Assembly: GCA_039028615.1 (NCBI GenBank)
Contig: JBCCHT010000008.1
Coordinates: 192,001-256,000, forward strand
Length of the DNA: 64,000 nucleotides
Source: Myxococcota bacterium
GTDB taxonomy: Bacteria > Myxococcota_A > Polyangia > Nannocystales > Nannocystaceae
Direction: 5' to 3'
In this document: positions 3,028-16,506 of the stretch, in pieces
Position numbering within the stretch: position 1 is the stretch's first letter
Layout of the letters: every line of letters begins with the position of its first letter
Notes under the pieces: model-generated
What the model was told of the DNA's origin: nothing
Seen by the model: only the letters and a program-made list of their open reading frames with translations
Databases searched by the model: none
Translations under genes and position numbers: made by a program

Positions 3028-4266
3028 CTACTGCTTCTGCACGGCGATTGCCGAGGCCCCGCCCAGCACGTGCAGGAACTGGTTGAAGTGGCCGCGCTCG
3101 GAAACGCGAGCCGCCTTGCGCAGCACCTCCTGCACCGATCGCGGCTCCCGACGCTGCAGCCATCGCAGCAGCCACCGCGCCCCACGAGTGTCGGGCAGCT
3201 CGAACGAGTACCCATTGGCCGCGACGATGAGCGCGTCACCGGCCTCCGCTCGCTCGAGCCACAGGTCGGGCTGCGGCGCGATGACGTCGGCGGCGGCGAG
3301 CTTTCGAAACGCCCAGGGTGCCGGCAGCACTCCGCCCGCGGTCCGAACCCGCAGCCAGTGATGCAGCTGATCGCGATGCAACGCACCCGATGCCAAGACC
3401 TCTGCGAGCCGATCGAGCGGTGCGGTGAGCTCGGGCGGCGCCTGCTGTCCGTCGGCATCGGCGGGCAAGGCCATGGTCGGCGGCACGCCCATCCCCGAGA
3501 CGGTGCGCTCGAGATGCGTCGCCAAGGTTCGATGCATGATGCCGATGCTGAACGACGCCCCCAGCCCCCCGTCGGCCGTCGCCACATGCCAGGCGTTCCG
3601 CGGCCAGTAGGCGAGATCGCGGGTGCCCAGGGTGAGCGTCTCGGCGTCGTGCTGGTACTCGGTGGCCTCGGCCGCGGCGCGGGTCCGCAGGGTGGGCACG
3701 CCGGGCCGCGGAAAGTAGTCGTCGTCCCACACCAGCATCTGCTTGTGGCCCTTGACCGCGAACGCCATGGTGTCGGTGAAGTCGCGGTGGATCCCGCCCG
3801 GCGTAGCCCCGTAGTTGCCCAAGAACAGCGCGGTGTCGGTGGTGCACACGGGTAAGCCGACGCGCCCGTAAAACCCCCGCAAGAAGGTTCGGACCCGGCG
3901 CCACGCCCCGACGTGATGCCGGGTCAGATCGTTGAAGATGACACCGTGCGGCCGCCCCTCGCTGAGTCGATCGAGCCGCCGCGCGTAGCCGGCCAGGCTG
4001 CGATCGGAGGCGCGGGGCATGAACAGCCCCAGCTCCTTACCCGACTCGAGCTGCCGATCGTCGACATAAAAGCGCGCCCGAAACTGGTCGGGCCGCTTGG
4101 CGCCCTGCACCAGCGCATCGAAGGCCTCCTTGGCCGTCAGCATCGGGCGCGTCAGCGGAGTTCGCATGACGCCGGGGCGCTGCGACCAGAGCCGATCGAC
4201 GAAGTCCGACCAGAAGGGCTCGAGGGCTAGCGATTCCACGCGTTCTTTTCTTCGGGAGGTGGCCAT
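3028..4266 (-). CDS. JmjC/cupin Fe(II)/2-oxoglutarate oxygenase (RoxA/YcfD-like) with a C-terminal winged-helix-like region
   Basis: GGIHRDFTD...AVKGHKQM...LAYWPRNAWHVA gives the HxD...H triad. Start taken at ATG 4266; GTG 4239 is an alternative. Confidence 0.8.
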   Translation of the reverse strand: MATSRRKERVESLALEPFWSDFVDRLWSQRPGVMRTPLTRPMLTAKEAFDALVQGAKRPDQFRARFYVDDRQLESGKELGLFMPRASDRSLAGYARRLDRLSEGRPHGVIFNDLTRHHVGAWRRVRTFLRGFYGRVGLPVCTTDTALFLGNYGATPGGIHRDFTDTMAFAVKGHKQMLVWDDDYFPRPGVPTLRTRAAAEATEYQHDAETLTLGTRDLAYWPRNAWHVATADGGLGASFSIGIMHRTLATHLERTVSGMGVPPTMALPADADGQQAPPELTAPLDRLAEVLASGALHRDQLHHWLRVRTAGGVLPAPWAFRKLAAADVIAPQPDLWLERAEAGDALIVAANGYSFELPDTRGARWLLRWLQRREPRSVQEVLRKAARVSERGHFNQFLHVLGGASAIAVQKQ

Positions 4267-5327
4267 GTTCGTCCGTGGGCGGCGTAGAACTCTTCGTACT
4301 CGCGGTATCGGCCCATGCCGGCCACCGCCTCGAAGGCGGACAGGCGCGTGCAGCCGTAGGGGGCCTGCACCGCGTCGGGACACAGGGTGGCGAACGCCTC
4401 GCGGAGCAGACCTTCGAGCTTCCAGTAGCGCTTGGCGGGTGTCTCGTAGCTCCGGTAAAAGGCCCGGCGAATGCGGTGGAACTGCTTTTCGGCCGCCTCG
4501 TCGATGAGCGACTCGTGGGCGAAGCGTGAGCCCACCGCCTGGCCGTAGGGGCCCAAGTGCAGGTTGTCGCCGAGAAACTTCGCGTAGCGATTGCGACCGA
4601 AGCGAACGTTCACCGACAAGCTCGTGGTGACGTACTCGATGTGGTGCCACCAGGCGGGCGGGATGTAGACCGCCTCGCCCGGCTCGAGGAAGAAATCGTA
4701 GCCGCCGACGAAGCGAACGAACTCGGCCCGGTCGCGCTCGCTGAAGTCACCGAACTGGATGAAGCTCTGGTTCTTCATCGGCAGCATGCGCAGCGACTGC
4801 GAGGGCGGCACCAGCAGGATGCGCTTGCGACCGAAGACCTGGTAGAGGATGACGTGGCGTAGATCGCCGTCGTAGTGCATGTGGGCGTAGTTGCCCTCGC
4901 CCGCGCCGAAGATCATCGACAGGACCTCGTCCTCGCCCGGCGGCATGCGAGCGTACGCGGGCAGCGTGAACAGGTCGCGCAGCATGCCCGGCGTGTCGAG
5001 CTCGCTGCACAGCAGATCGGTGGCCGGGTTTCGCTCGAGGCGTCGCAAGTAGGCGCCGAGCTTCGATGGTTTGGGGGCGACCGGGGGCGGCGGCGGCGTG
5101 CCCCGCTGGTAGGCCCTAAACATCCCGCGCGAGGCCTCGGGCTTGATCTGCACGGGCAGCGACGCGAGCCTGCGCTCGGCCTTCGCCCGCGTGTCGATGC
5201 GGCGGATCGGGTCGCCCGTGTAGAGGTTGGTCAAGATCACGGGGCGCTGCGTCGCCAGGTAGCGGCGTCGCATCTGGCCCGGGCTCGGCGCCTCGATCCG
5301 GCGAATGCGTCGGTTGGCGTTCATCAT
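4227..5327 (-). CDS. JmjC/cupin-like (FIH/Cupin_8-type) Fe(II)/2-oxoglutarate oxygenase
   Basis: YLATQRPVILT...AHMHYDGD...QVFGRKRILL...LEPGEAVYIPPAWWHHIEY. The ATG at 5327 lies 1 nt after the radical SAM stop. Confidence 0.88.
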   Translation of the reverse strand: MMNANRRIRRIEAPSPGQMRRRYLATQRPVILTNLYTGDPIRRIDTRAKAERRLASLPVQIKPEASRGMFRAYQRGTPPPPPVAPKPSKLGAYLRRLERNPATDLLCSELDTPGMLRDLFTLPAYARMPPGEDEVLSMIFGAGEGNYAHMHYDGDLRHVILYQVFGRKRILLVPPSQSLRMLPMKNQSFIQFGDFSERDRAEFVRFVGGYDFFLEPGEAVYIPPAWWHHIEYVTTSLSVNVRFGRNRYAKFLGDNLHLGPYGQAVGSRFAHESLIDEAAEKQFHRIRRAFYRSYETPAKRYWKLEGLLREAFATLCPDAVQAPYGCTRLSAFEAVAGMGRYREYEEFYAAHGRTWPPPEEKNAWNR

Positions 5328-5328
5328 C

Positions 5329-7062
5329 TCAAGCGGGGATCGCCTCGGCGCCGAGCTGCACGTGCCATGGCTGGGCCGCACGCCTTCCTGGGACCTCGAG
5401 GTCGTGCTCGAAGCGGAAGCGGTGCTCGGGGCGACTTTCGTCGGCCACGTGCGCGTGTAGGCTCGTGAGCGTGTGCCAGTGCTCGGGCTGGTCTCGCAGG
5501 CTCTCGACCACGCGGTACTCGATGGCGTCGCGCACCACGGCGGCCGCCTCGGGATCGGGCGCCCGCGCCTGGGCCCAAGCCGACAGCGCCCGACCGAAGC
5601 GCGCCACGTTCGTCATCAGGGCATGGTCGTCGAGGGCGTCGAAGAACGAGGCGGTGAAGATCTCGGTGAAGAACGCCCCGCCCGGCCGCACCTGGTACGT
5701 ATCGAAGAGCCGAGAGATCACGGGATACATCTGCTCGATGAGCATGGAGACCAGGTGGGCGCGCAGCATGTCGGCCGGGCTGAACTGCGGCGTCTGGCGG
5801 GTCACATGCGGGCTCACGTCGTCGTAGCGAAGGCCGAGCTCCTTCGCGGTGGCCCGGAACTCGGTGCCGGGCAAGACCTGCAGCGGCTGCAGAGCCATGG
5901 GCGCGCCGGGCTGGACGCCCTGGATGTAGTCGATGCCCTCGAGAAAGTCCTGCAGGGTGTCGCCGGGCAGCCCGTAGATGAGGTCCCAGCGCAGGTTGGG
6001 GTTCTCGCCCAGCTTACGGATGTTGCCTTCGAGCCGCTGCAGGCTAGTGGGGCGACCGATGGTCTTGAGGGTCTGGCGGTTGACGCTCTGCAGCCCCACG
6101 CCGAAGTGCAGGCGCCCCTGGCGGAACAGCTCGCGGCACTGGTCGGCCACCAGGTCGGGCAACATGTCGAGCTTGATCTCCGTATGAAGGTTTCCGTCGG
6201 TGAACTCTTCGAGGAAGAACCGGAAGATCTCGAAGGCTCGCTCCTTCCGCACGGTGAGGATCCCATCGGCAAAGTAGACCGACTTGATCCCCAGATCGCG
6301 CACATGAGCGAGTTCCTGCAACACTCGATCGATGTCGAAGTATCGCATTCTTCCCCCGTCGTTCTTGGGGTACTGGCAAAAGGCACAATTGACCGGACAA
6401 CCGCGAGAGGTCTCGACGATCACCGAAGGCCGCCCCTCGCGATGAAAGCGAGTCAGCAGCTCTTGTACGGTTGCCCCCAAGATCGGTGACGGGATTTCGT
6501 CGAGATTCTCGATATAGTCGCGGCGCTTGCCGCGGACGATCTCGTCCCCATTCCGAAAGGCGATGAAAGGGACACCGTGAAACCCAGCCTCGCCCGCGAG
6601 GGTCAGGCCGGTCGACGGCGCGAGGCCGAGCCACGCGAGCAAGAAGCGGCGAAACGCCTGCTCGCCTTCGCCATCGATCACGTAGTCGAGCTGCGAGTGC
6701 TGCGACAGCAGGCTCTCGCTCTCCCCGTAGGTATCGGGGCCGCCGGCCACGATGGTGAGCTCCGGGCGTAGCTTCTTGCAGACCGCCGCCACCGCCAGCA
6801 AGAAGCCCGCGTTCCAGCAGTAGAGCGATAGGCCCACGATCGTGGGCGATTGCGCGATGATCTGCCGAGCCGTGTCGATGCACGCGCGCGCGTGCGCCTG
6901 GCGATCGCGGTGGGTGACGGCGAGCACCGGGTGATGGATGAACTCGCAGCGCTCGGCCACGCGCTCGTCGAGGCACGCGTAGTTGCGCAGCAACCGGAAG
7001 GGGGTCGACGAAGCCTCGAAGCTCGGCCCCTGGCTCACGAACACGATGCGTACTGGGTCCAT
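5329..7062 (-). CDS. Cobalamin (B12)-dependent radical SAM enzyme (class B methyltransferase-like)
   Basis: N-terminal B12-binding region (IVGLSLYCWN...IVAGGPD...DYVIDGEGE), ETSRGCPVNCAFC (CxxxCxxC), GLQS, DLIYGLPGDT, LQVLPGT. Confidence 0.92.
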   Translation of the reverse strand: MDPVRIVFVSQGPSFEASSTPFRLLRNYACLDERVAERCEFIHHPVLAVTHRDRQAHARACIDTARQIIAQSPTIVGLSLYCWNAGFLLAVAAVCKKLRPELTIVAGGPDTYGESESLLSQHSQLDYVIDGEGEQAFRRFLLAWLGLAPSTGLTLAGEAGFHGVPFIAFRNGDEIVRGKRRDYIENLDEIPSPILGATVQELLTRFHREGRPSVIVETSRGCPVNCAFCQYPKNDGGRMRYFDIDRVLQELAHVRDLGIKSVYFADGILTVRKERAFEIFRFFLEEFTDGNLHTEIKLDMLPDLVADQCRELFRQGRLHFGVGLQSVNRQTLKTIGRPTSLQRLEGNIRKLGENPNLRWDLIYGLPGDTLQDFLEGIDYIQGVQPGAPMALQPLQVLPGTEFRATAKELGLRYDDVSPHVTRQTPQFSPADMLRAHLVSMLIEQMYPVISRLFDTYQVRPGGAFFTEIFTASFFDALDDHALMTNVARFGRALSAWAQARAPDPEAAAVVRDAIEYRVVESLRDQPEHWHTLTSLHAHVADESRPEHRFRFEHDLEVPGRRAAQPWHVQLGAEAIPA

Positions 7063-7093
7063 CCGCGGCACTTCAGAGCACAAAGAGAAGGGT

Positions 7094-7115
7094 GCCAGCC
7101 CCCCGGGGGGCTGGC
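7094..7115 (-). terminator. Perfect 22-bp palindrome, probable attenuating terminator or stabilising hairpin between the precursor gene and the radical SAM gene
   Basis: GCCAGCCCCCCGGGGGGCTGGC, followed on the minus strand by ACCCTTCTCTTTG. Confidence 0.55.
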
Positions 7116-7286
7116 CGAGCCATGATCTTCACGCTGGGCGCAAGCGACCATGGCGACATCGCGAAACCGCGAGGTCGATGCATGCGGTGGCAATTGCCTT
7201 CAACCCTGGAGGCTGGGCGGCGCCCCACCACGTTGCGTTGATGTAGACGTCACACTCGGGGTGTCGGCCCTCCCCGAATGACTCGC

Positions 7287-7457
7287 TCAGGCGTTCGTGA
7301 AACGGGTGGTAAACCCACCGATCAGCGTCAGCTCGAAGCTGCAGCGGTAGTAGCCGCCGGTCACCTCGAGCAACTGATCCTCGTCGAGCTCCTCGGTCTG
7401 CTGAGTCACGACCTTCTTCTTGACGACGAGCTTCTTCTGTTTGTTCTTCTTTTCCAT
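7287..7457 (-). CDS. RiPP precursor peptide, 56 aa, with a double-glycine leader (not in the ORF track)
   Basis: My translation is MEKKNKQKKLVVKKKVVTQQTEELDEDQLLEVTGG-YYRCSFELTLIGGFTTRFTNA*. An AGGA RBS precedes the ATG. The leader fits L(-12)..L(-7)..V(-4).GG. Confidence 0.88.
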   Translation of the reverse strand: MEKKNKQKKLVVKKKVVTQQTEELDEDQLLEVTGGYYRCSFELTLIGGFTTRFTNA

Positions 7458-7659
7458 CTGTTGTCCTACTGTATTTCCCGAGCTCGGTCTTCGAGCCCGA
7501 GCTGTGGAACTACATTAAAGCAGTCCCGTCGTGTCCTTGTTATGGACAGTTTGGAATGTACTTAACAGGAAAACCTGGTTCAAGTAGAAATTCGTGGAAT
7601 CGGACACATCCGGGTGTTAGTCTTCCCGCCTACCCCACGTTATTCTCGAAGTACTCGTA
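7458..7659. promoter_or_regulatory. AT-richer divergent promoter region of the RiPP cluster
   Basis: Non-coding gap between the divergent precursor and lanB genes, visibly lower in GC, with an AGCTCGG/CCGAGCT stem near 7481-7503. Confidence 0.5.
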
Positions 7660-10600
7660 ATGACAGAGTCTTTCGTCTTCCGACGGCCAATTCTCCCGCT
7701 GAGTGCCCTCATCGACGCCGGAGCTTGTCAGTCGTCAACTAAGCAAAACGAGCACCTTTCCGAGCGTATCGACAGTGAGTGGCACTATCTGCGTAATTTG
7801 GTGACGGCACCATTGCTGCAACAAGCGCTGCACATTGCCAGCCCCAATGCGCTCCAAGCCCTCGGTGAAGAGTCGAGCGACCGGAAGCAACAGAAGAAGA
7901 TCGAACGCACACTTGCGCGCTATCTGTCGCGTATGACGTGGCGATGCGAACCCTTTGGGCTATTCGCAGGCATCGGCACTGGCACAATTAGCGAACGCAC
8001 CAATCTACACCCGGGCAAAGATCTCCGCCTTCGCCGCCATACCCGGCTCGACACCGGGCTGGTCGCCGATGTCGCCGCGCGCCTGCAGTCCCACCCGGAT
8101 GTGCTCCGAACCCTACGCTACTTCCCGAATTCGAGCGTATTTCGGGTCGCCGAGGGCGTGCGACACCTCGCCGCGCGCCCGACTTCGCGCGGGCGCACCT
8201 TCGATCTCGTCGCGCTCGAGTCTTCTGCGCCCATCGTGGCTGCGCTGGACTTCTGCCGACGAGGTGTGCCCTTTGCCGCCGTGGCAGACTATGTGGCCAC
8301 CGAGTTCGAGGCCGAGCACGAAGAAGCGATCGAGTTCGTGGAATCGCTCATCGAGAGTCAGACTCTGGTGAGTGAACTCGAGATCACCCTGACCGGAATC
8401 GAGCCCACACTGGCGCTGTGCGCGGCGCTGACCGAGCACGAAATCCCGGTGGCCGCCGCCGTCTGCGAGCACCTTCGCGCGATTCATGATGCGATCGAGT
8501 CCATCGATGGCACTGCGGTCGAACGCATCACGCTCGATGCTCAGCGCACGCTCGAGCACCGTGTCCGTGAGCTGGCCGGGCCCGACTACTCGGGGCCGCT
8601 GCTTCAGGTCGATCTGCACTTCGAAGGCGCCACGCCCACGCTGGGGCGCGACGTCGTGCGACAGCTTCGACGAGTCGCCGAAGTCCTGCCGTGGTTCGGT
8701 ACGCGCCAGCGCGGGGCCGAGGCGTTCGCGACTCGCTTCATCGAGCGCTACGGCTACGCCGAGGTGCCCCTGTTGGAAGCCGCGGACGAAGACTTCGGCA
8801 TCGGGGTCGCCACGTCGCAGCGCTCCTTGTCTCCGCTGCTCGGCGGCATCGTGTTTCCCATCGCCCTGGCCGTGGACCAGCCCAGCACCTGGGCCCCGCG
8901 TCACGAGTTCCTGCTCGAGCGCCTCAGCGGGGCGCTCCGCCGCGGCGAACGGGAGATCACCATCACCGCCGAAGACGTCGAGGCGCTGAGCGAGGTCGAG
9001 GACGCTCCCCTGCCGCTGCCGTCGGCGCTGTCGGTGCGGGCCACCGTAGTGGGGTCTGCGTCGCAGGTCGAGTCGGGTAAGGCGCGGGTGCTCGTGCGCG
9101 GCGTCGAGGGGCCCTCGGGAGCGCGGTTGTTGGGCCGCTTCGCCCACGGGGACCCCAAGCTCGCCGACGAGGTTCGCGAGCATCTGCGGGCCGAAGAACG
9201 ACTCGATCCCGAGGCCATCTTCGCCGAGATCGTGCACCTGCCCGAGGGACGCCAGGGCAACGTGTTGCTCCGCCCCGTGCTGCGCGAGCACGAGATCCCC
9301 TACATGGCCCGCAGCGGAGCGCCGCTCGACAAGCAGATCCCGCTCGACGATCTCATGGTGTCCGTCTCGGGCAACTCCGTGGTGCTGCGCTCGCGTCGGC
9401 TCGGCAAGCGCATCGTGCCGCGGTTGTCGACGGCCCACAACTACGACAACCTGCGGGCGCTTCCGCTGTATCGCTTGCTGGCCGCGATCCAAGACCAAGG
9501 CTGCGAACCCCGGGTCAAGTTCGAGTGGGGCCCGCTCGAGAACTCGGAATTCCTGCCGCGAGTGGTGTACGAGCGGGCGATCCTCAAGCCGATGACGTGG
9601 CGAGTCTCGGGTCATCGGCTCTCGCAGTGGGCCGCGCTCGAGGGGCAGGCCCTGGCCGATCACACCGCCGCGCTTCGCAAGGAGCTGGGGCTTCCTCGCT
9701 GGGTCATCTTGGCCTCGGATGTCGACGATCCGCTCGCGGTCGATCTCGAAAGCCCGATCATGCGCGAGTCGTTGGCTCAGATCCTTCGGCGGCGCACCTG
9801 GGCTCGCTTCACCGAGATGCTGCCCGGCCCCGACGAGCTGTGCTCCGATGGCCATGTGCACGAAGTCGTCGTGCCCTTGGTGCGCGACACTCCGCCCCGC
9901 GAGGTGCCTCGGGTCGAGCCGGTCGAGTCGAAGCTCCGCTACTACCCGCCGGGCAGCGAGTGGCTCTACGCGCGGCTCGTCGCCGGCCGCGGGTTGCTCG
10001 ACGACGTGCTGCTCGAGTTTCTGCCCGTGGTCTCGCAGGTGTTGGGCCAGCAGCAGGCCGACCGCTGGTTCTTCGTGCGCTACAACGACCCCTCGTGGCA
10101 CCTACGGCTGCGCCTGCACGGCGAGCCCACCCGGCTGTGGAACGAGGCCCGGCCCCGCCTCGACGAGGTCGCCGCGCGGCTCGTGGCCAACGGCACGCTC
10201 AGCGACTTCGAGTACTGCACCTACGACCGCGAGCTCGAGCGCTACGGCGGCGACGCCACCACGGAGATCTGCGAGCACATCTTCAACGTCGACAGCACCG
10301 CCATGGCGCGCATCGTGGCGCACGTGAACGACAGCGGGCAGGCCGACCTTCGTTGGCACGCGGGGCTCGTGGCCACCGATCGCATGCTCGACGACCTCGG
10401 CTTCGACCGGGCGGGCAAGATCGCGGTGCTCCAGCCGCTGCGGGACCTCATGGCCAGGGAGTTCCAGCTCGAAGGCGCGCGGGGCCGCTCGCTGAGCAAG
10501 AAGTACCGGAAGCTGCGCGGCACCGTCGAAGCCCTCGTCCAAGACCGCAACCACTCCGCCGCGCTGGCGCCGATCCACCAGATCCTCGACCAGCGCTCTG

Positions 10601-10797
10601 CTGCCCTGGTTCCCCTGGGCCAGCACCTGCGCCGAGCCGAGAGCACGCAGCCGCTCGATCGAGTCGGCTGCGCGCTGCTGCACATGCAGCTCAACCGCCT
10701 CTTCGACAGCTTCCAGCGCGAGCACGAGATGGTGCTCTACGACTTCCTGTACCGCCACCATCATTCGCAGTCCAAGCGCAGGACGCCCGGTCGATGA
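7660..10797 (+). CDS. lanB: Class I lanthipeptide-type dehydratase with fused glutamylation and elimination domains
   Basis: YLSRMTWRCEPFGLFAG, LQVDL, GPSGARLLGRF, PRLSTAHNY, FLPRVVYERAIL; C-terminal EWLYARL, WFFVRYNDPSWHLRLR, YDRELERYGG, LLHMQLNRL; 1045 aa. Confidence 0.95.
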   Translation: MTESFVFRRPILPLSALIDAGACQSSTKQNEHLSERIDSEWHYLRNLVTAPLLQQALHIASPNALQALGEESSDRKQQKKIERTLARYLSRMTWRCEPFGLFAGIGTGTISERTNLHPGKDLRLRRHTRLDTGLVADVAARLQSHPDVLRTLRYFPNSSVFRVAEGVRHLAARPTSRGRTFDLVALESSAPIVAALDFCRRGVPFAAVADYVATEFEAEHEEAIEFVESLIESQTLVSELEITLTGIEPTLALCAALTEHEIPVAAAVCEHLRAIHDAIESIDGTAVERITLDAQRTLEHRVRELAGPDYSGPLLQVDLHFEGATPTLGRDVVRQLRRVAEVLPWFGTRQRGAEAFATRFIERYGYAEVPLLEAADEDFGIGVATSQRSLSPLLGGIVFPIALAVDQPSTWAPRHEFLLERLSGALRRGEREITITAEDVEALSEVEDAPLPLPSALSVRATVVGSASQVESGKARVLVRGVEGPSGARLLGRFAHGDPKLADEVREHLRAEERLDPEAIFAEIVHLPEGRQGNVLLRPVLREHEIPYMARSGAPLDKQIPLDDLMVSVSGNSVVLRSRRLGKRIVPRLSTAHNYDNLRALPLYRLLAAIQDQGCEPRVKFEWGPLENSEFLPRVVYERAILKPMTWRVSGHRLSQWAALEGQALADHTAALRKELGLPRWVILASDVDDPLAVDLESPIMRESLAQILRRRTWARFTEMLPGPDELCSDGHVHEVVVPLVRDTPPREVPRVEPVESKLRYYPPGSEWLYARLVAGRGLLDDVLLEFLPVVSQVLGQQQADRWFFVRYNDPSWHLRLRLHGEPTRLWNEARPRLDEVAARLVANGTLSDFEYCTYDRELERYGGDATTEICEHIFNVDSTAMARIVAHVNDSGQADLRWHAGLVATDRMLDDLGFDRAGKIAVLQPLRDLMAREFQLEGARGRSLSKKYRKLRGTVEALVQDRNHSAALAPIHQILDQRSAALVPLGQHLRRAESTQPLDRVGCALLHMQLNRLFDSFQREHEMVLYDFLYRHHHSQSKRRTPGR

Positions 10798-11291
10798 GCG
10801 CCGAAGCGATCGTCGTGGGCCTGCTCGGGCTGTGGGTCGTGGCCGCGGCCCTCGTGCAGGTGCCGTGGGGCTCGCGGTGGGTGCCCAACGTGGTCATGAC
10901 GCTCTTTCTGCCGGTCTGGACTCTGTTCACCGACCCGATGATCGCGTTCGACTACGGCCTGTACTGGCAATCGCGGGGCAAGGGCGCGGACGAAGACGAG
11001 TGGGAGCCAGTAGAGATCGCCGCCCCACGCGGCCTGCTGAGCGCGCTGTGGAACCCCCGCAAGCGCATGGCGGCGCGCTTCCGTGCGCTGGTGGCCCTGG
11101 TCACCGCGCTGCGCATGCAACGAAGGACCGACGCGATCCCCGACTCGGTCGCCTACCGGATCCTCGAAGAGCACGTTCGCAGCCAACGCAGCAACCGCGA
11201 TCCCTTCGTGTTCGCCATCGTCATGACCGACCCGCGCGACGACGAGGCCGAGCCCCACTTTCTCTACGTCTCCGAGCGGTGTGAATCGTGA
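10794..11291 (+). CDS. SdpA-like / HTTM-partner membrane-anchored protein
   Basis: MSAEAIVVGLLGLW (TM)...LPVWTLFTDP..FDYGLYW...W...R...LWNPRKR, resembling the PxWxFFAP...WNP motif. ATGA overlap with lanB. Confidence 0.65.
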   Translation: MSAEAIVVGLLGLWVVAAALVQVPWGSRWVPNVVMTLFLPVWTLFTDPMIAFDYGLYWQSRGKGADEDEWEPVEIAAPRGLLSALWNPRKRMAARFRALVALVTALRMQRRTDAIPDSVAYRILEEHVRSQRSNRDPFVFAIVMTDPRDDEAEPHFLYVSERCES

Positions 11292-12124
11292 TCGCTCCGA
11301 TCGACAGCACCACGGCGCTGCGCCTGGTCGAGGTGGTCCTGGGCGCGAACCTGCTGCTCGCCTCGCTCGAGTACCTCGCGCAGCATGCCGACTTTCGCCC
11401 CGGCGGCCTGGCCTACGGCGGTGCGACCTTCCGCGGCGGCGGAGGCCTGCGGCGGGTCAACCGGGCCGTCGCCTCCGCCCCCTTGTTTCCGTTGCTCAGC
11501 GCGGTGCGGGGACTGGGCGCCATCGCGTTGATGGCCGGGGTCGTGCACGGCTCCGCCCTCCCCGTGCTGATGGTCGGCCTGTGTGCGCTGACCGTGGCCA
11601 TGAACATGAGCTTCGTGTTCGGCACGGATGCCTCCGATCAGATCAGCCTGCTCGTGCTCTTCGGCCTGACGGTGGGCGCCCCCTTCCGCGACAGCGAGTC
11701 CATTCGGCTGGCCACGCTGTGGTTCATCGCGCTGCACTCGGCCATCTCGTACATGAGCGCGGGGTGGTCCAAGCTGCGGATCCGCGAGTGGCGAGACGGT
11801 CGCTTCGTTCGCAGCGTCGCCACGTGCGAGCTGTACGGCCATCCGTGGACCCAGCGGGCGCTGTCCGGCCAGGCGATGGCCGTGCTCGCATCGTGGGCGA
11901 CCATGGGGTTCGAGGTCCTGTTCTTCCTCGCGATCGTGGGCGGTCCCGTGCTCGCCCCGGCCGTGCTCGTGGTGGGGTTCCTCTTCCACCTGAGCAACGC
12001 GGTGTTCATGGGCCTCAACCGCTTCGTCACCGCGTTCCTGGCCACCTACCCCGCACTGTGGTTTTGCGGGCAACGCCCCGAGTCGTTCCTCGATCTCGCC
12101 GCCGTCTTCACCACGGGAAGCTAG
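11288..12124 (+). CDS. HTTM-domain (SdpB-like) polytopic membrane protein
   Basis: GTDASDQI, YMSAGWSKL..EWRDG, WATMGFEVLF, FHLSNAVFMGLNRF; several TM helices; GTGA overlap. Confidence 0.8.
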   Translation: MIAPIDSTTALRLVEVVLGANLLLASLEYLAQHADFRPGGLAYGGATFRGGGGLRRVNRAVASAPLFPLLSAVRGLGAIALMAGVVHGSALPVLMVGLCALTVAMNMSFVFGTDASDQISLLVLFGLTVGAPFRDSESIRLATLWFIALHSAISYMSAGWSKLRIREWRDGRFVRSVATCELYGHPWTQRALSGQAMAVLASWATMGFEVLFFLAIVGGPVLAPAVLVVGFLFHLSNAVFMGLNRFVTAFLATYPALWFCGQRPESFLDLAAVFTTGS

Positions 12125-12126
12125 CC

Positions 12127-13350
12127 ATGCCCGATACCGCCGCCAACTCTGCCCCCATGCCCGGGCTCGGTGCCCTGCTGGGCATGGACGACCTCGCGCC
12201 GTTTTTTCGCGAGCACTGGCCCGACCGTCACTGCCTCACCCACGGCTCGGTCGAGCGGGTCGGCGAGCTGGGCCACGTGCCCGAGCTGGCCAGCGTCGAT
12301 ACCCTGCTCGAGGCCGTGGACGACGAGATCCTGGTCATGCCCAACCATCTGCCGGGTGAAGGCTACGGCGGGGGTGTGCCGGTCAAATCGTCGGCCGCCC
12401 GGGCGCTGTTCGCCTCGGGGCTGACGCTGTGGATCAAGCGACTCGACAAGTCGATCCCGTTCTTTGCGCGCTTGCGCTCCCGCTTTGCCGCCGACCTGGG
12501 CGTGGCCGAGTCCGACGTGCACCCGCAGCTGTGGGTCTCCCCCAAGGGCAAGGCCACACCGCAGCACTTCGATGCCGCCGAGGTGTTCGTGTTCCAGCTG
12601 CGGGGGCACAAGCGCTGGCGCGTCGCGCCCAACGACGAGGTCCGCTACCCCATGATCGACTCGCAGCTCAGTCGCATGCAGCTGCGTCGCGCCGACACGC
12701 AGCTCGACCTGCAGCCCGGCTCGTTTCTCTACCTCCCGCGCGGTCACTGGCACCACACCGAGGCGCTGTCCGAGTCCTGGTCGATCACCCTGTTCGTCAA
12801 GGCGCCGAGCTGGCTGCGAGTGCTGCAAGAGCACCTGTTCCGCGAGCTGGGTAAAGACGAACGGTGGCGCAAGCCGGTCGCGGTGGCCTCGCCCGTGGAG
12901 GGCTATCGGCGCGAGTCGGCCGCAGAACTCGGCACACTGCTGGGCGAGCTGGTGCACGAGTTCGCACCGCAGCACGCGGATGCGATCTTCGAGGCGGCCC
13001 GCCGCGGGGTGACCGGCCGAAGCCGAGCCGCCCGCGAGCGCTCGCGGACACGGCCGTATCGACGCATCGAAGGCAGCACCGTCGAAGTCGAGCGCGGCGG
13101 CTCGATGGTGGTGGTGCGGGTGAGCTCTACCGAAGACACGATCACCGAGCTGGAGCTGTCGGCCGAGCTCGAGTCCATCGTGCGGTGGATCATCGAGCAC
13201 GAGGGCGCCTTCAGCCCGGTCGATCTCGACCCGTTGCTGCACGAGATCGCGGGCGACGCCTTCTCGCGAGCGCTGTACACCAACCAGTACCTGCCCACGC
13301 TCTTGCACGAGCTGTATGATGCCGGGCTGCTCGGTAGCGACGAAGAATGA
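12127..13350 (+). CDS. JmjC/cupin (Cupin_4, RoxA-like) oxygenase
   Basis: FFREHWP...TPQHFDAAEVFVFQLRGHKRW...LQPGSFLYLPRGHWHHTEA...APSW; C-terminal part of ORF 11281..13350. Confidence 0.9.
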   Translation: MPDTAANSAPMPGLGALLGMDDLAPFFREHWPDRHCLTHGSVERVGELGHVPELASVDTLLEAVDDEILVMPNHLPGEGYGGGVPVKSSAARALFASGLTLWIKRLDKSIPFFARLRSRFAADLGVAESDVHPQLWVSPKGKATPQHFDAAEVFVFQLRGHKRWRVAPNDEVRYPMIDSQLSRMQLRRADTQLDLQPGSFLYLPRGHWHHTEALSESWSITLFVKAPSWLRVLQEHLFRELGKDERWRKPVAVASPVEGYRRESAAELGTLLGELVHEFAPQHADAIFEAARRGVTGRSRAARERSRTRPYRRIEGSTVEVERGGSMVVVRVSSTEDTITELELSAELESIVRWIIEHEGAFSPVDLDPLLHEIAGDAFSRALYTNQYLPTLLHELYDAGLLGSDEE

Positions 13351-14513
13351 GCGGCTCCGCTCCGCTCGGCCTCTCCGCCCTGTTCGCCCCGCTCTCCGAC
13401 CGCGACTTCCTCGAGCGGCACTGGCCGCACATCGGGTTGGTGCAGCACGGCGATCCCGAGCCCTGGACCTCGCTCACCGCCGAGCCTCGACTGGCCAGCC
13501 CTCTCGCGCTCGCGCAGGTGCATGCCGGGCCCATCCAGACGCTGGGCACCACCGACGAGGGCGGTCACGCCCAGCGGGAGGTCGCACGGGAGCAGGTGCC
13601 GACGCTGGTGGAGCAGGGCAAGAGCCTGAAGTTCGACGGTGTCGATCGAACCATCGAGGAGGTCGACCGCATGTGCGAGGCGTTGGCCAGCGACCTCGGC
13701 CTCGAGCGCTCGACCTGCTACTGCCAGGCGTTCTTGTCGGGCAAGGGTGAGCGCGTCGCCCTGCACTTCGACTCGGTCGAGGTCTTCGTGCTGCAGCTGC
13801 GCGGGCGCAAACGCTGGACACATGCACGCAACGACGAGGTTCGCTTTCCCCTCAACCCCTGGGCGCCAGGGGTCCAGAGCAGCCCCGACCACGGCATCGT
13901 GGCGCCCGATGGCTTCGATCCCGACGTCGACACGGAGTCCGCCGTGTTGCGGCCGGGCTCCGCGATGTTCGTGCCCCGCGGGTGGTGGCATGGCACCGAG
14001 GCCCTCGACGACGACTGCGTCTCGCTTTCGTTCATGGTGCACACACCGACGTGGATCGAGGTTGGGTTGGCCGCCCTGCGCAAGCGCTTGATGGCCTCTG
14101 AGGCCTGGCGGCGGCCGATCGCGCACGATCTATCGAAGGCGTCGGGGTTGCTCGAGTTCGTGAACGAGGCACAGGGCATGGTCGACCGCGCACAGCAGCT
14201 GGCGGGGCAGCTGGCGGCGATGGACCTTGCACCCAGGCGACCACGGCAGCTCCACGCGGACATGCAGCTTCAGCTGCGACCGGACACGACTCTCGAGACA
14301 TTCGTCGAAGATGGGCGGGTCGTCGCCTGCATCACCCGCCCGGGCGTGAAGCGACGAATCGCCGTCGGTCCCAAAGGCGCCGCGCTGTGTCGCTTCATCG
14401 TCGAGCAGCCGGGGCCGTTTTCGGTGAGCCGTGCTCGCGATGCGGTCTCCGAGCTCGACGCCGACCGCATCCTGCTCGCGCTCATCCGCCTGGGCGCGCT
14501 TCAGCCCTCGTAG
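13347..14513 (+). CDS. JmjC/cupin (Cupin_4, RoxA-like) oxygenase, paralogue of the upstream gene
   Basis: FLERHWP...LHFDSVEVFVLQLRGRKRW...LRPGSAMFVPRGWWHGTEA...TPTW; ATGA overlap. Confidence 0.9.
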   Translation: MSGSAPLGLSALFAPLSDRDFLERHWPHIGLVQHGDPEPWTSLTAEPRLASPLALAQVHAGPIQTLGTTDEGGHAQREVAREQVPTLVEQGKSLKFDGVDRTIEEVDRMCEALASDLGLERSTCYCQAFLSGKGERVALHFDSVEVFVLQLRGRKRWTHARNDEVRFPLNPWAPGVQSSPDHGIVAPDGFDPDVDTESAVLRPGSAMFVPRGWWHGTEALDDDCVSLSFMVHTPTWIEVGLAALRKRLMASEAWRRPIAHDLSKASGLLEFVNEAQGMVDRAQQLAGQLAAMDLAPRRPRQLHADMQLQLRPDTTLETFVEDGRVVACITRPGVKRRIAVGPKGAALCRFIVEQPGPFSVSRARDAVSELDADRILLALIRLGALQPS

Positions 14514-14514
14514 C

Positions 14515-16506
14515 TCACTTGCTCGCGGGCACCAAGCACACGCAGCGCCCACGCCAAAGCTCGATCATCTCCTGCACCAACGCCTCGAACTTCGCCCCCT
14601 GGGTCGGCAGCCCGAGCTCGTCCACCAACGCCGCGATCGTCTTTTGTCCATCGGCGGCACTCAGCACCGCAAACGCCTCCACGCTGACCTGAGCGGTGGG
14701 CGGCTTGAAGTCGGGCGAGGTCAACGTCCCCACCCGATGCACGTCGCCGCGCTTGACCAGCTCTTGGTAGACCGTCAGCGACGGCACCAGCTGCGCATGG
14801 TCCCGCGTGCCGACTTCACGCTTCTCGATGATGTGCTCGCCGATCACCAACGCGTCGAGCTCGGTGGTCAAAAACGCCACCATCGCGTCATGGGCCGTCT
14901 GCACGATCGGCTCGACGGCGTTGTTGAAGGAGGTATTGAGCACGACCGGCATCCCCGAGCGCTCACCGAACGCCTCGAGCAACCCGTGAAAACGCGGGTC
15001 GACCTGCTCGCGCACCACCTGTACCCGAGCCGTGCCGTCGACATGGGTCACCGCGCCGAGCGAGGGCCGATGAGGCTCCCGCACGGGCGCGACGAAGCCC
15101 ATGAACGACAGGTCGCTGTCGTCCTCGGGGATCTCGAAGTAGGTCCGCGCCGCCGCCTCGGTGACCGCGGGCGCAAAGGGCCGATAGCCCTCGCGCAGCT
15201 TGACCGCCCGATTCACCCGATCCCGCGTCCCCGCCTCGCGCGGGTCGGCCAGGATGCTGCGGTGCCCCAGCGCTCGCGGCCCGAACTCGGAGCGCCCCTG
15301 AACCCAGCCGACGATCTTGCCCTGGTGCAGCAGCGCCGCCGTGTCGGCACAGATCTGCTTCGAGCGCCGCGCGTGCACCCACCCCGCCCAGCGGTCGATC
15401 TCCGCGGATGGATCGCCGACATCGGGCCCCAGGTACGCATGCTTCAGCCGACGCGGCGCCGCGGCGCCGTGCCCGAGCCGACGACACACCTCCAACGCTG
15501 CACCGAGGGCTCCGCCTGCGTCGTGCGAGGCTGGCTGCACGAAAATCCCGTCGAACTCGCCCGAGGCCAACAACCGACCATTGAACGTAGAGTTGTGGGC
15601 GACACCCCCGGCCAAGCACAAGTGACGCTCGCCCGTCGCTTCGCGAAAATGATCGACGATGTGCATGGCGAGGGTCTCGAGGGTGGCTTGAATGGCCGCC
15701 GCGATATTGCGATGTGCCTCGGTGAAGGCCTCGCCCCGATGACGCACATCGGCGAGCACCCCAGCCTTCTGCAGCCGCGTGACCCAGGCATAAAGCGGCG
15801 CGACTTCGTAGGCGCCCTCGGGCTTCAGCTCGTACAGCGACGCGAAGGCCTCGGCGTGCACGGAGGGATCGCCATAGGGTGCCAGCCCCATGACCTTGTA
15901 CTCGTCGAAGCGCCGATAGCCGAGCAGGCAGATGAGGTCGCGATAGAGGTCGCCAAGCGACTGCGCCCCAGTATAGGTCTGCAGGCGCTCGAGCTCGCCG
16001 CCGCCGTGGGCCCGAAACACCATGCCCGAGTTGCCGTCGCCACCACCATCGATGACGACCACCAGCGCGCGCTCGAAGCCGCTGCAGGCGTAGGTGCTAC
16101 GCGCGTGGGCGATGTGGTGATTGACGAAGTGCAGGCGCGCGGACACGTCGACGCCGAACGCATCGAGGAAGGGCTGGGCGGCATAGGTGCGGGCACCGAG
16201 TTCGTCGGCCCCGTTGGCGCGACCGACCATCTCTTGGATGGACTCGAAGTCCCACGTGGGCTTGGACCAGTTGTTGGCGACGGCATCGACCTCGTCGAGC
16301 CCCACGCCCGCGATGTCGAGCACGGCCCGGATGGCACGCTCGGGGAAGTAGTTGCCGTGCTTGACCCGGGTGAGGCGCTCGTCCTCGACCGCGGCGACGA
16401 CATCACCATCGCGCACGACCACCGCGGTGGCGTCGTGAAAGCCATATCCGAGGCGGTTGTCTTGGCCGAGCCGGCGACGACCACCATGAAATCCAAGCAC
16501 GATCAT
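14515..16506 (-). CDS. Carbamoyltransferase (NodU/CmcH/TobZ family) with a C-terminal extension
   Basis: [85 protein letters not shown]. Confidence 0.95.

Follow-up and report, generated by a model that had tools for sequence, protein, structure and literature searches.

A 56-aa open reading frame (ORF) in a myxococcotal genome sits in a rare RiPP cluster that works like a hybrid of LanB and linaridin pathways yet fits neither the class I lanthipeptides, the linaridins, the pyritides nor the pearlins. The ORF lies on the minus strand at 7287..7457 of the window, the whole 64,000-nt stretch of DNA that we analysed. Its sequence features identify it as a real gene for a predicted RiPP precursor, and a small gene that is ordinary in itself. 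On balance we lean, if only slightly, towards this ORF being the single precursor of the surrounding cluster, with a product that is linear, densely modified and not a lanthipeptide.

The precursor gene and its leader

The gene carries the expected signals for translation and export. Translation of 7287..7457 returned the peptide that a first-pass annotation of this DNA had read on the minus strand, a 35-aa leader that joins a basic segment to a double-glycine motif, followed by a 21-aa core. Its AGGA ribosome-binding site is indeed present at 7464..7467, with the ATG 6 nt downstream. Residues L-12, L-7 and V-4 precede the first GG (G-2, G-1), the hallmark of a double-glycine leader. The residue counts given earlier for the core (1 Ser, 4 Thr, 1 Cys, 2 Tyr, 3 Phe, 2 Arg and 1 Asn) are correct, and the core also holds one Glu that had been left out. 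The divergent intergenic region upstream (7458..7659; 202 bp, 48.5% GC) contains no match to the sigma-70 consensus promoter. Downstream of the stop codon, a structured minus-strand spacer (7085..7280) contains a hairpin at about 7253-7280 and a terminator-like stem at 7085-7104. It folds with a z-score of -2.72, equalled in stability by 3 of 200 shuffles, and draws four overlapping terminator-like calls against 0.5 expected, suggesting a possible transcript stabiliser or attenuator.

Codon usage, motif rarity and conservation all point to a coding gene. Third-position GC is 0.86 against 0.30 at the second position, in a 12.3-Mb genome of 68% GC. The synonymous-codon score of 0.137 compares with 0.10-0.28 for nine neighbouring genes and ranks within the top 4.9% when set against 23,238 ORFs 45-70 aa long, whereas the overlapping antisense ORF scores -0.64. 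Of the genome's 69,855 small ORFs, 5 contain the double-glycine pattern, and each of five shuffles contains none; this rarity is partly circular because the pattern was composed with this precursor in view. Three of the other four matches adjoin RiPP enzymes: LanC, LanB-like and P450 genes; a JmjC gene; and radical SAM with MNIO genes.

The peptide is more conserved than the enzymes around it. An identical 56-aa peptide exists as a called protein in the collection that we searched, and its orthologue P0272, found on six contigs, differs at the last residue alone (55/56, 98.2%). Orthologues of five enzymes (LanB, LinL, LinG and two JmjC proteins) are 87.7-93.9% identical, an excess for the precursor with binomial P 0.02 and Fisher P 0.04. 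The precursor and these five orthologues probably share one contig, as the longest contig is 16,178 bp for all of them; for the carbamoyltransferase orthologue it is 9,827 bp. With one close orthologue, core residues cannot be ranked by conservation. A homologue search with the precursor found nothing outside its own protein cluster, and the best Pfam hit was sub-threshold (E 0.037). Among the sequencing runs listed, the stretch occurs in a single run, labelled marine metagenome, and in no RNA run; of three runs compared with it, the possible source run alone contained it.

The basic leader segment tracks LanB, in keeping with the hybrid leader proposed in the first-pass annotation. We examined 30 LanB loci from related genomes and hand-picked 18 candidate precursors from these and one further locus of the same genome as the window; 13 loci gave none. 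Ten of the 18 candidate leaders contain a K-K-L-x-[LIV]-x-K segment, as does the window precursor, compared with none of seven double-glycine leaders of its own genome that have no LanB neighbour. Two or more Cys occur in 16 of the 18 candidates, and a LanC match occurs at 22 of the 30 LanB loci, six of them by construction of the profile; among the eight loci with no LanC match, five have LanB at a contig edge. The two Cys-free candidates belong to loci in which LanC was not found, L048 and L053. A profile of 11 LanB-adjacent leaders missed the window precursor when run against 83,153 small ORFs with hits accepted up to E 50, probably on account of its longer spacer.

L048 (G048:C1370, 1849-10981), from the same genus, encodes a Cys-free, Pro-rich double-glycine precursor, a 175-aa membrane protein, an HTTM protein, a LanB with the usual Thr, two oxygenases (TauD-like and 2OG) and a methyltransferase, with no LanC on its 12.7-kb contig. 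Pairwise comparison of its small and HTTM proteins with the window pair gave no significant match, and profiles matched only weakly, so we regard it as a parallel combination of LanB and HTTM and not as an orthologue. At L053 (G219:C77, 8600-14509), the neighbours of LanB are a Cys-free candidate precursor and two genes of unknown function, with no LanC in 20 kb.

A LinL/LinG pair among tailoring genes

The cluster spans 13.5 kb (genes 3028-16506), with two divergent arms plus a single convergent gene. The minus-strand arm comprises JmjC oxygenase B (412 aa, 3028..4266), the JMJD5/FIH-like JmjC oxygenase A (365 aa, 4227..5324), a radical SAM enzyme that depends on B12 (577 aa, 5329..7062) and the precursor. 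On the plus strand, LanB and two membrane proteins of 165 and 278 aa are followed by the YxbC/ROX-like JmjC oxygenase C (407 aa, 12127..13350) and JmjC oxygenase D (388 aa, 13347..14513). A NovN/GdmN-type O-carbamoyltransferase (663 aa, 14515..16506, minus strand) converges on this arm and likely belongs to the cluster. All four JmjC proteins keep the HxD...H motif, and the radical SAM enzyme has an intact CxxxCxxC motif, with the C-methyltransferases TokK and CysS as its closest solved relatives.

JmjC D may also bind the leader. Its C-terminal domain is predicted to form beta-strands followed by three helices; the single-sequence fold has a mean pLDDT of 45 and is of high confidence only at residues ~305-388. 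This part of the model matches the PbtF RRE (Z 8.5, rmsd 2.7, 79 aligned residues) and also the winged-helix domain of the ROX protein MINA53 (Z 8.8), making it RRE-like in the model, yet not specifically so. A Pfam search of four C-terminal pieces detected no PqqD/RRE family. RRE-fused JmjC proteins and carbamoyltransferases have been described (PMC12710340).

A JmjC, sulfotransferase, JmjC trio (L001:12753-15510; C8:184753-187510) lies upstream of the cluster, some 7.5 kb away; at 36%, its last JmjC is the nearest paralogue of JmjC D. We saw no precursor at the trio, and we rejected its genes as cluster members, since an unrelated operon intervenes.

By sequence comparison, the membrane proteins encoded after lanB are homologous to linaridin LinL and LinG. 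The LinG homologue (278 aa, 11288..12124, plus strand), an SdpB-like HTTM protein, is 33-37% identical to linaridin LinG, with direct E values of 1e-19 to 1e-23 and profile E values of 1e-70 to 1e-82. The LinL homologue (165 aa, 10794..11291, plus strand), DUF5819-like and SdpA-like, was recognised by profile, hhalign and structural neighbours. It matches linaridin LinL directly at E 6e-6 to 0.002; a profile made from three LinL proteins alone scores it at E 3e-15, hhalign gives 99.8%, and shuffled sequences reach at most 3.1 bits. Its structural neighbours are DUF5819-like (TM 0.53-0.65), and two motifs conserved in the family deviate from the consensus in this protein. Pfam returned no family for either protein, and the LinG homologue reaches 35.2 bits against the 178.4 required by the SdpB model (TIGR04033). 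The references came from three plasmid loci among 19 matching records. Two are linaridin-type clusters whose precursors carry PxxxTP, and the third is a Streptomyces atratus LanB/LanC/LinG/LinE/LinL hybrid; we assigned the LinG, LinE and LinL labels of these loci from gene order and domain content. LinE itself is absent from the cluster, and two LinE queries gave only fragments at E 0.002-0.006 on other contigs. Four of the best 150 relatives of the 278-aa protein are fused to alpha/beta hydrolases, which is the architecture of LinH (bioRxiv 10.1101/2020.07.09.196543; PMC9927463).

The LinG homologue is predicted to adopt the membrane-domain fold of GGCX. Its model (pLDDT 94) finds vitamin-K-dependent gamma-carboxylase in all of its best 15 structural matches, with TM 0.56-0.64 across the best ten. 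K162, W168 and F246 do not vary across 104 aligned relatives, and their spacing is that of K189/W195/F273, the three residues assigned to the pocket of a DUF5819 + HTTM complex (bioRxiv 10.64898/2026.08.19.745780).

Elsewhere, this HTTM subfamily usually has another partner. It is encoded at at least 13 loci among the 120 pattern loci listed, none of which showed LanB, and 11 of the 13 (L062, L077, L078, L100, L102, L125, L126, L131, L068, L099 and L133) adjoin a gene of a 280-330-aa family. That partner was not found in the genome of the window, leaving the 56-aa peptide as the only local candidate substrate of the LinL/LinG pair. The 280-330-aa proteins are conserved in an N-terminal domain and in a C-terminal Leu/Arg motif, and they also have a hydrophobic segment that varies. 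Their genes lie upstream of LinL/LinG-like pairs in several phyla, and they are possibly a family of large RiPP precursors. Related genomes also contain stand-alone LinL/LinG-like pairs (L028-L030), with no RiPP genes seen in their ORF lists.

A LanB altered at a glutamylation residue

The LanB of the window is altered at one residue of the glutamylation site. The full-length protein (1045 aa, 7660..10797, plus strand) has both the glutamylation domain (PF04738, E 2e-149) and the elimination domain (PF14028, E 3e-55). Nine residues essential in NisB are kept in MadB (PMC12241602). Aligned to MadB, MibB and NisB, the window LanB keeps eight of the nine (R91, R95, D131, D318, R493, R818, R861 and H1008). 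At the position of MadB Thr95, where the glutamylation-essential Thr normally stands, it has Glu97. Among 119 LanB homologues this position is Thr in 115, Met in two, unmatched in one and Glu in one, the orthologue. The Glu is also missing from 11 further aligned LanBs, three of which are among the 118 other homologues. A search of metagenome contigs with the Glu-variant pattern gave five matches, none a LanB, and a LanB-based scan of genome contigs for related loci gave 119 pattern matches, none confirmed. Judged from these alignments, the Thr-to-Glu change is fixed in this LanB lineage and rare.

This change and the LinL/LinG pair, both unremarked in the first-pass annotation, make its assignment of the core Ser and Thr as LanB targets less certain. 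LanB with Glu97 may no longer be a glutamyl-tRNA dehydratase and may serve as a leader-binding scaffold or eliminase, leaving all dehydration and epimerisation to LinG and LinL. Glu97 is common to the orthologue and absent from all the other LanBs compared, the metagenome search found no further LanB with it, and deletion studies tie linaridin Dhb to LinE, LinG, LinH and LinL (bioRxiv 10.1101/2020.07.09.196543), all of which favours such a change of role. Against it, LanB retains both domains and the remaining eight essential residues, and the protein diverges at 54 of 247 conserved columns, which suggests that one substitution may be tolerated or compensated; we consider a repurposed LanB unlikely. 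The LinG fold and its conserved Lys raise a different prospect, a quinone-dependent carboxylase with the single core Glu, or else a C-alpha, as its target, in the manner of GGCX and MloH, and the DUF5819 + HTTM complex has been proposed as a split carboxylase (bioRxiv 10.64898/2026.08.19.745780). That account also gives such pairs just half of the GGCX clamp, and the nearest characterised kin by sequence are linaridin LinG and LinL, for whose products the literature covered mentions no carboxylation. Carboxylation strikes us as very unlikely.

Proposed pathway and product, and relation to known systems

In linaridins, LinG and LinL homologues have been reported to abstract C-alpha protons and epimerise residues, LinE is a suspected leader hydrolase, and CypH and CypL reportedly dehydrate, epimerise and remove the leader. 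Salinipeptins contain D-amino acids with no known epimerase (PMC10125368; PMC10849128). In the pathway that we propose, the basic leader segment would dock on LanB and the JmjC enzymes through their RREs; the predicted complex of LanB residues 1-745 with the precursor scored 0.28 against a mark of 0.32, which speaks neither for nor against such docking. Core Ser and Thr would become Dha and Dhb through LanB, through LinG/LinL or through both, the four Thr being the candidate Dhb sites. LinG/LinL would take C-alpha protons and epimerise core residues, and the four Fe/2OG enzymes would hydroxylate side chains, with Phe, Arg, Asn and Tyr as candidates. The B12 radical SAM enzyme may then C-methylate the core and the carbamoyltransferase may cap a hydroxyl. 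The cluster encodes no C39 peptidase, other peptidase or exporter, and C39 domains have three matches elsewhere in the genome; a C39 peptidase-transporter encoded there would cut at G34-G35 and export the 21-mer. Such an enzyme acting in trans would remove the leader and so make LinE dispensable here. The product would be linear and contain dehydro residues, probably D-amino acids, and residues that are hydroxylated, methylated and carbamoylated.

Other fates of the peptide fare less well than this linear 21-mer. As the first-pass annotation held, the cluster has no LanC (no PF05147 match among its genes) and a core with one Cys makes a multi-ring lanthipeptide impossible. One thioether ring could still form if the Cys, which is kept in the orthologue, added to a downstream Dhb, either spontaneously or through a cyclase encoded elsewhere. 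The two PF05147 matches of the genome, a LanC-like gene and a LanM, lie outside the cluster on contigs C1 and C14. Each sits in a separate locus among neighbours of its own, the LanC-like gene, which matches weakly and in part, lies next to a degenerate LanB and another precursor, and the Cys precedes every Ser and Thr of the core; we judge a single ring quite unlikely. A shorter product could be the eight residues that follow the second GG, or else an aromatic N-terminal unit cross-linked by the B12 radical SAM enzyme by analogy with biphenomycin. It would suit the conservation of that GG, the three of four Thr that lie after it, and BipD, a B12 radical SAM biaryl coupler that occurs alongside a JmjC enzyme (PMC12707348). 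The residues before the second GG (E-7, F-8, Y-12) miss the cleavage consensus, which speaks against the cut site suggested there earlier, and conservation cannot decide the matter because the orthologue is identical at this point. With no dedicated protease in the cluster, and C-methyltransferases as the best family and structure matches of the radical SAM enzyme, we find a short product highly improbable. That the ORF is untranslated, or is no substrate of these enzymes, is barely credible: the leader profile did miss it, but its codon use, ribosome-binding site, rare motif, conservation above that of the enzymes, and the RiPP enzymes beside three of the four other pattern matches all tell against this.

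The cluster shares features with several classes and belongs to none of those considered. A full-length LanB with both domains is a class I lanthipeptide feature, but LanC is missing, there is one Cys, and eight of nine essential LanB residues remain. LinG (HTTM) and LinL homologues are linaridin features, but LinE, LinH and the PxxxTP motif are absent, the precursor having no Pro. A thiopeptide or pyritide calls for two Ser-derived Dha, a [4+2] synthase and a split LanB; here there is one Ser, LanB is fused, and no second elimination-domain gene or YcaO is among the cluster genes. The pearlin (PEARL) type lacks the elimination domain, which is present here with R818, R861 and H1008.

The closest described case, among the sources covered, is that of the Streptomyces hybrids, three strains of which combine LanB and LinE/G/L with LanC and Cys-rich cores (bioRxiv 10.1101/2020.07.09.196543). 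Like the S. atratus / S. xiamenensis type (L194), the window cluster has one small precursor and LinG and LinL homologues directly after LanB. Unlike it, the cluster has neither LanC nor LinE, one Cys instead of several, a double-glycine leader, the gene order linL-linG and Glu where the S. atratus LanB has Thr, and it adds four JmjC enzymes, a B12 radical SAM enzyme and a carbamoyltransferase. Linaridins (cypemycin, legonaridin, salinipeptin, corynaridin) share the LinG/LinL pair and a hydrophobic, linear, Thr-containing core, whereas the window has LanB and no LinE/LinH hydrolase, PxxxTP motif, LinM or LinD. With class I lanthipeptides (NisB, MibB, MadB) it shares the full LanB and the basic K-K-L-x-L-x-K plus double-glycine leader, a type common in the family of the window genome, and differs in its missing LanC, single Cys and altered glutamylation-site Thr. 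GGCX/MloH, the DUF5819 + HTTM pair and Bacillus SdpA/SdpB resemble the window pair in fold, Lys/Trp/Phe residues and two-gene arrangement. The window LinG falls below the SdpB cut-off and lacks the lumenal domain of GGCX, and the substrate of the pair, compared with GGCX/MloH and SdpA/SdpB, appears to be a short RiPP precursor. Carbamoyltransferases, JmjC hydroxylases and B12 radical SAM enzymes also act on the RiPP cores of crocagin (carbamoyltransferase CgnI, PMC10070186), biphenomycin (JmjC peptide hydroxylase BipG, PMC12707348; BipD) and curacozole (JmjC peptide hydroxylase CzlI, PMC11575548); core enzymes and precursors differ, and the likeness lies in the enzyme types as described.

The literature covered, which took in few subscription journals, yielded no cluster that joins LanB to LinG/LinL while lacking LanC and LinE; such cases may be listed in the supplements of Georgiou et al. 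(bioRxiv 10.1101/2020.07.09.196543). It is possible, if fairly doubtful, that the cluster represents a new RiPP class in which LinE-free LinG/LinL perform C-alpha chemistry (epimerisation and dehydration) on a double-glycine precursor, LanB has changed its job (to scaffold, eliminase or other aminoacyl transfer), and the 21-mer consists mostly of modified residues. The locus bears on how LinG and LinL dehydrate and epimerise peptides with no cofactor familiar from other RiPP enzymes. Nature here places the pair next to a separate dehydratase and leaves out LinE, making its own reaction testable on a defined 56-aa substrate, and the GGCX-like fold and conserved Lys suggest a quinone-dependent base that can likewise be tested. 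A natural LanB variant, changed at an essential position, and four JmjC enzymes that would share one short core add to the value of the locus.

Several other RiPP loci came to light. L037, L041 and L051 combine LanB and LanC with one or more arginases and two to three JmjC genes, L051 also having a B12 radical SAM gene, and are candidates for making ornithine-containing hydroxylated lanthipeptides; JmjC and B12 radical SAM genes thus occur beside LanB/LanC as well. At L050 (G036:C1), two LanB genes flank LanC, one with a degenerate elimination domain. The genome of the window (G000) holds at least eight further double-glycine small ORFs: C16:137269-137448, C17:22591-22974, C63 (L187:10108-10299), C21:42842-43126, C1:256686-256979, C1:732204-732404, C27:93154-93297 and C16:199944-200375. 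Four of these adjoin JmjC, radical SAM and MNIO, YcaO/TfuA with radical SAM and JmjC, or LanC-like, degenerate LanB and P450 genes.
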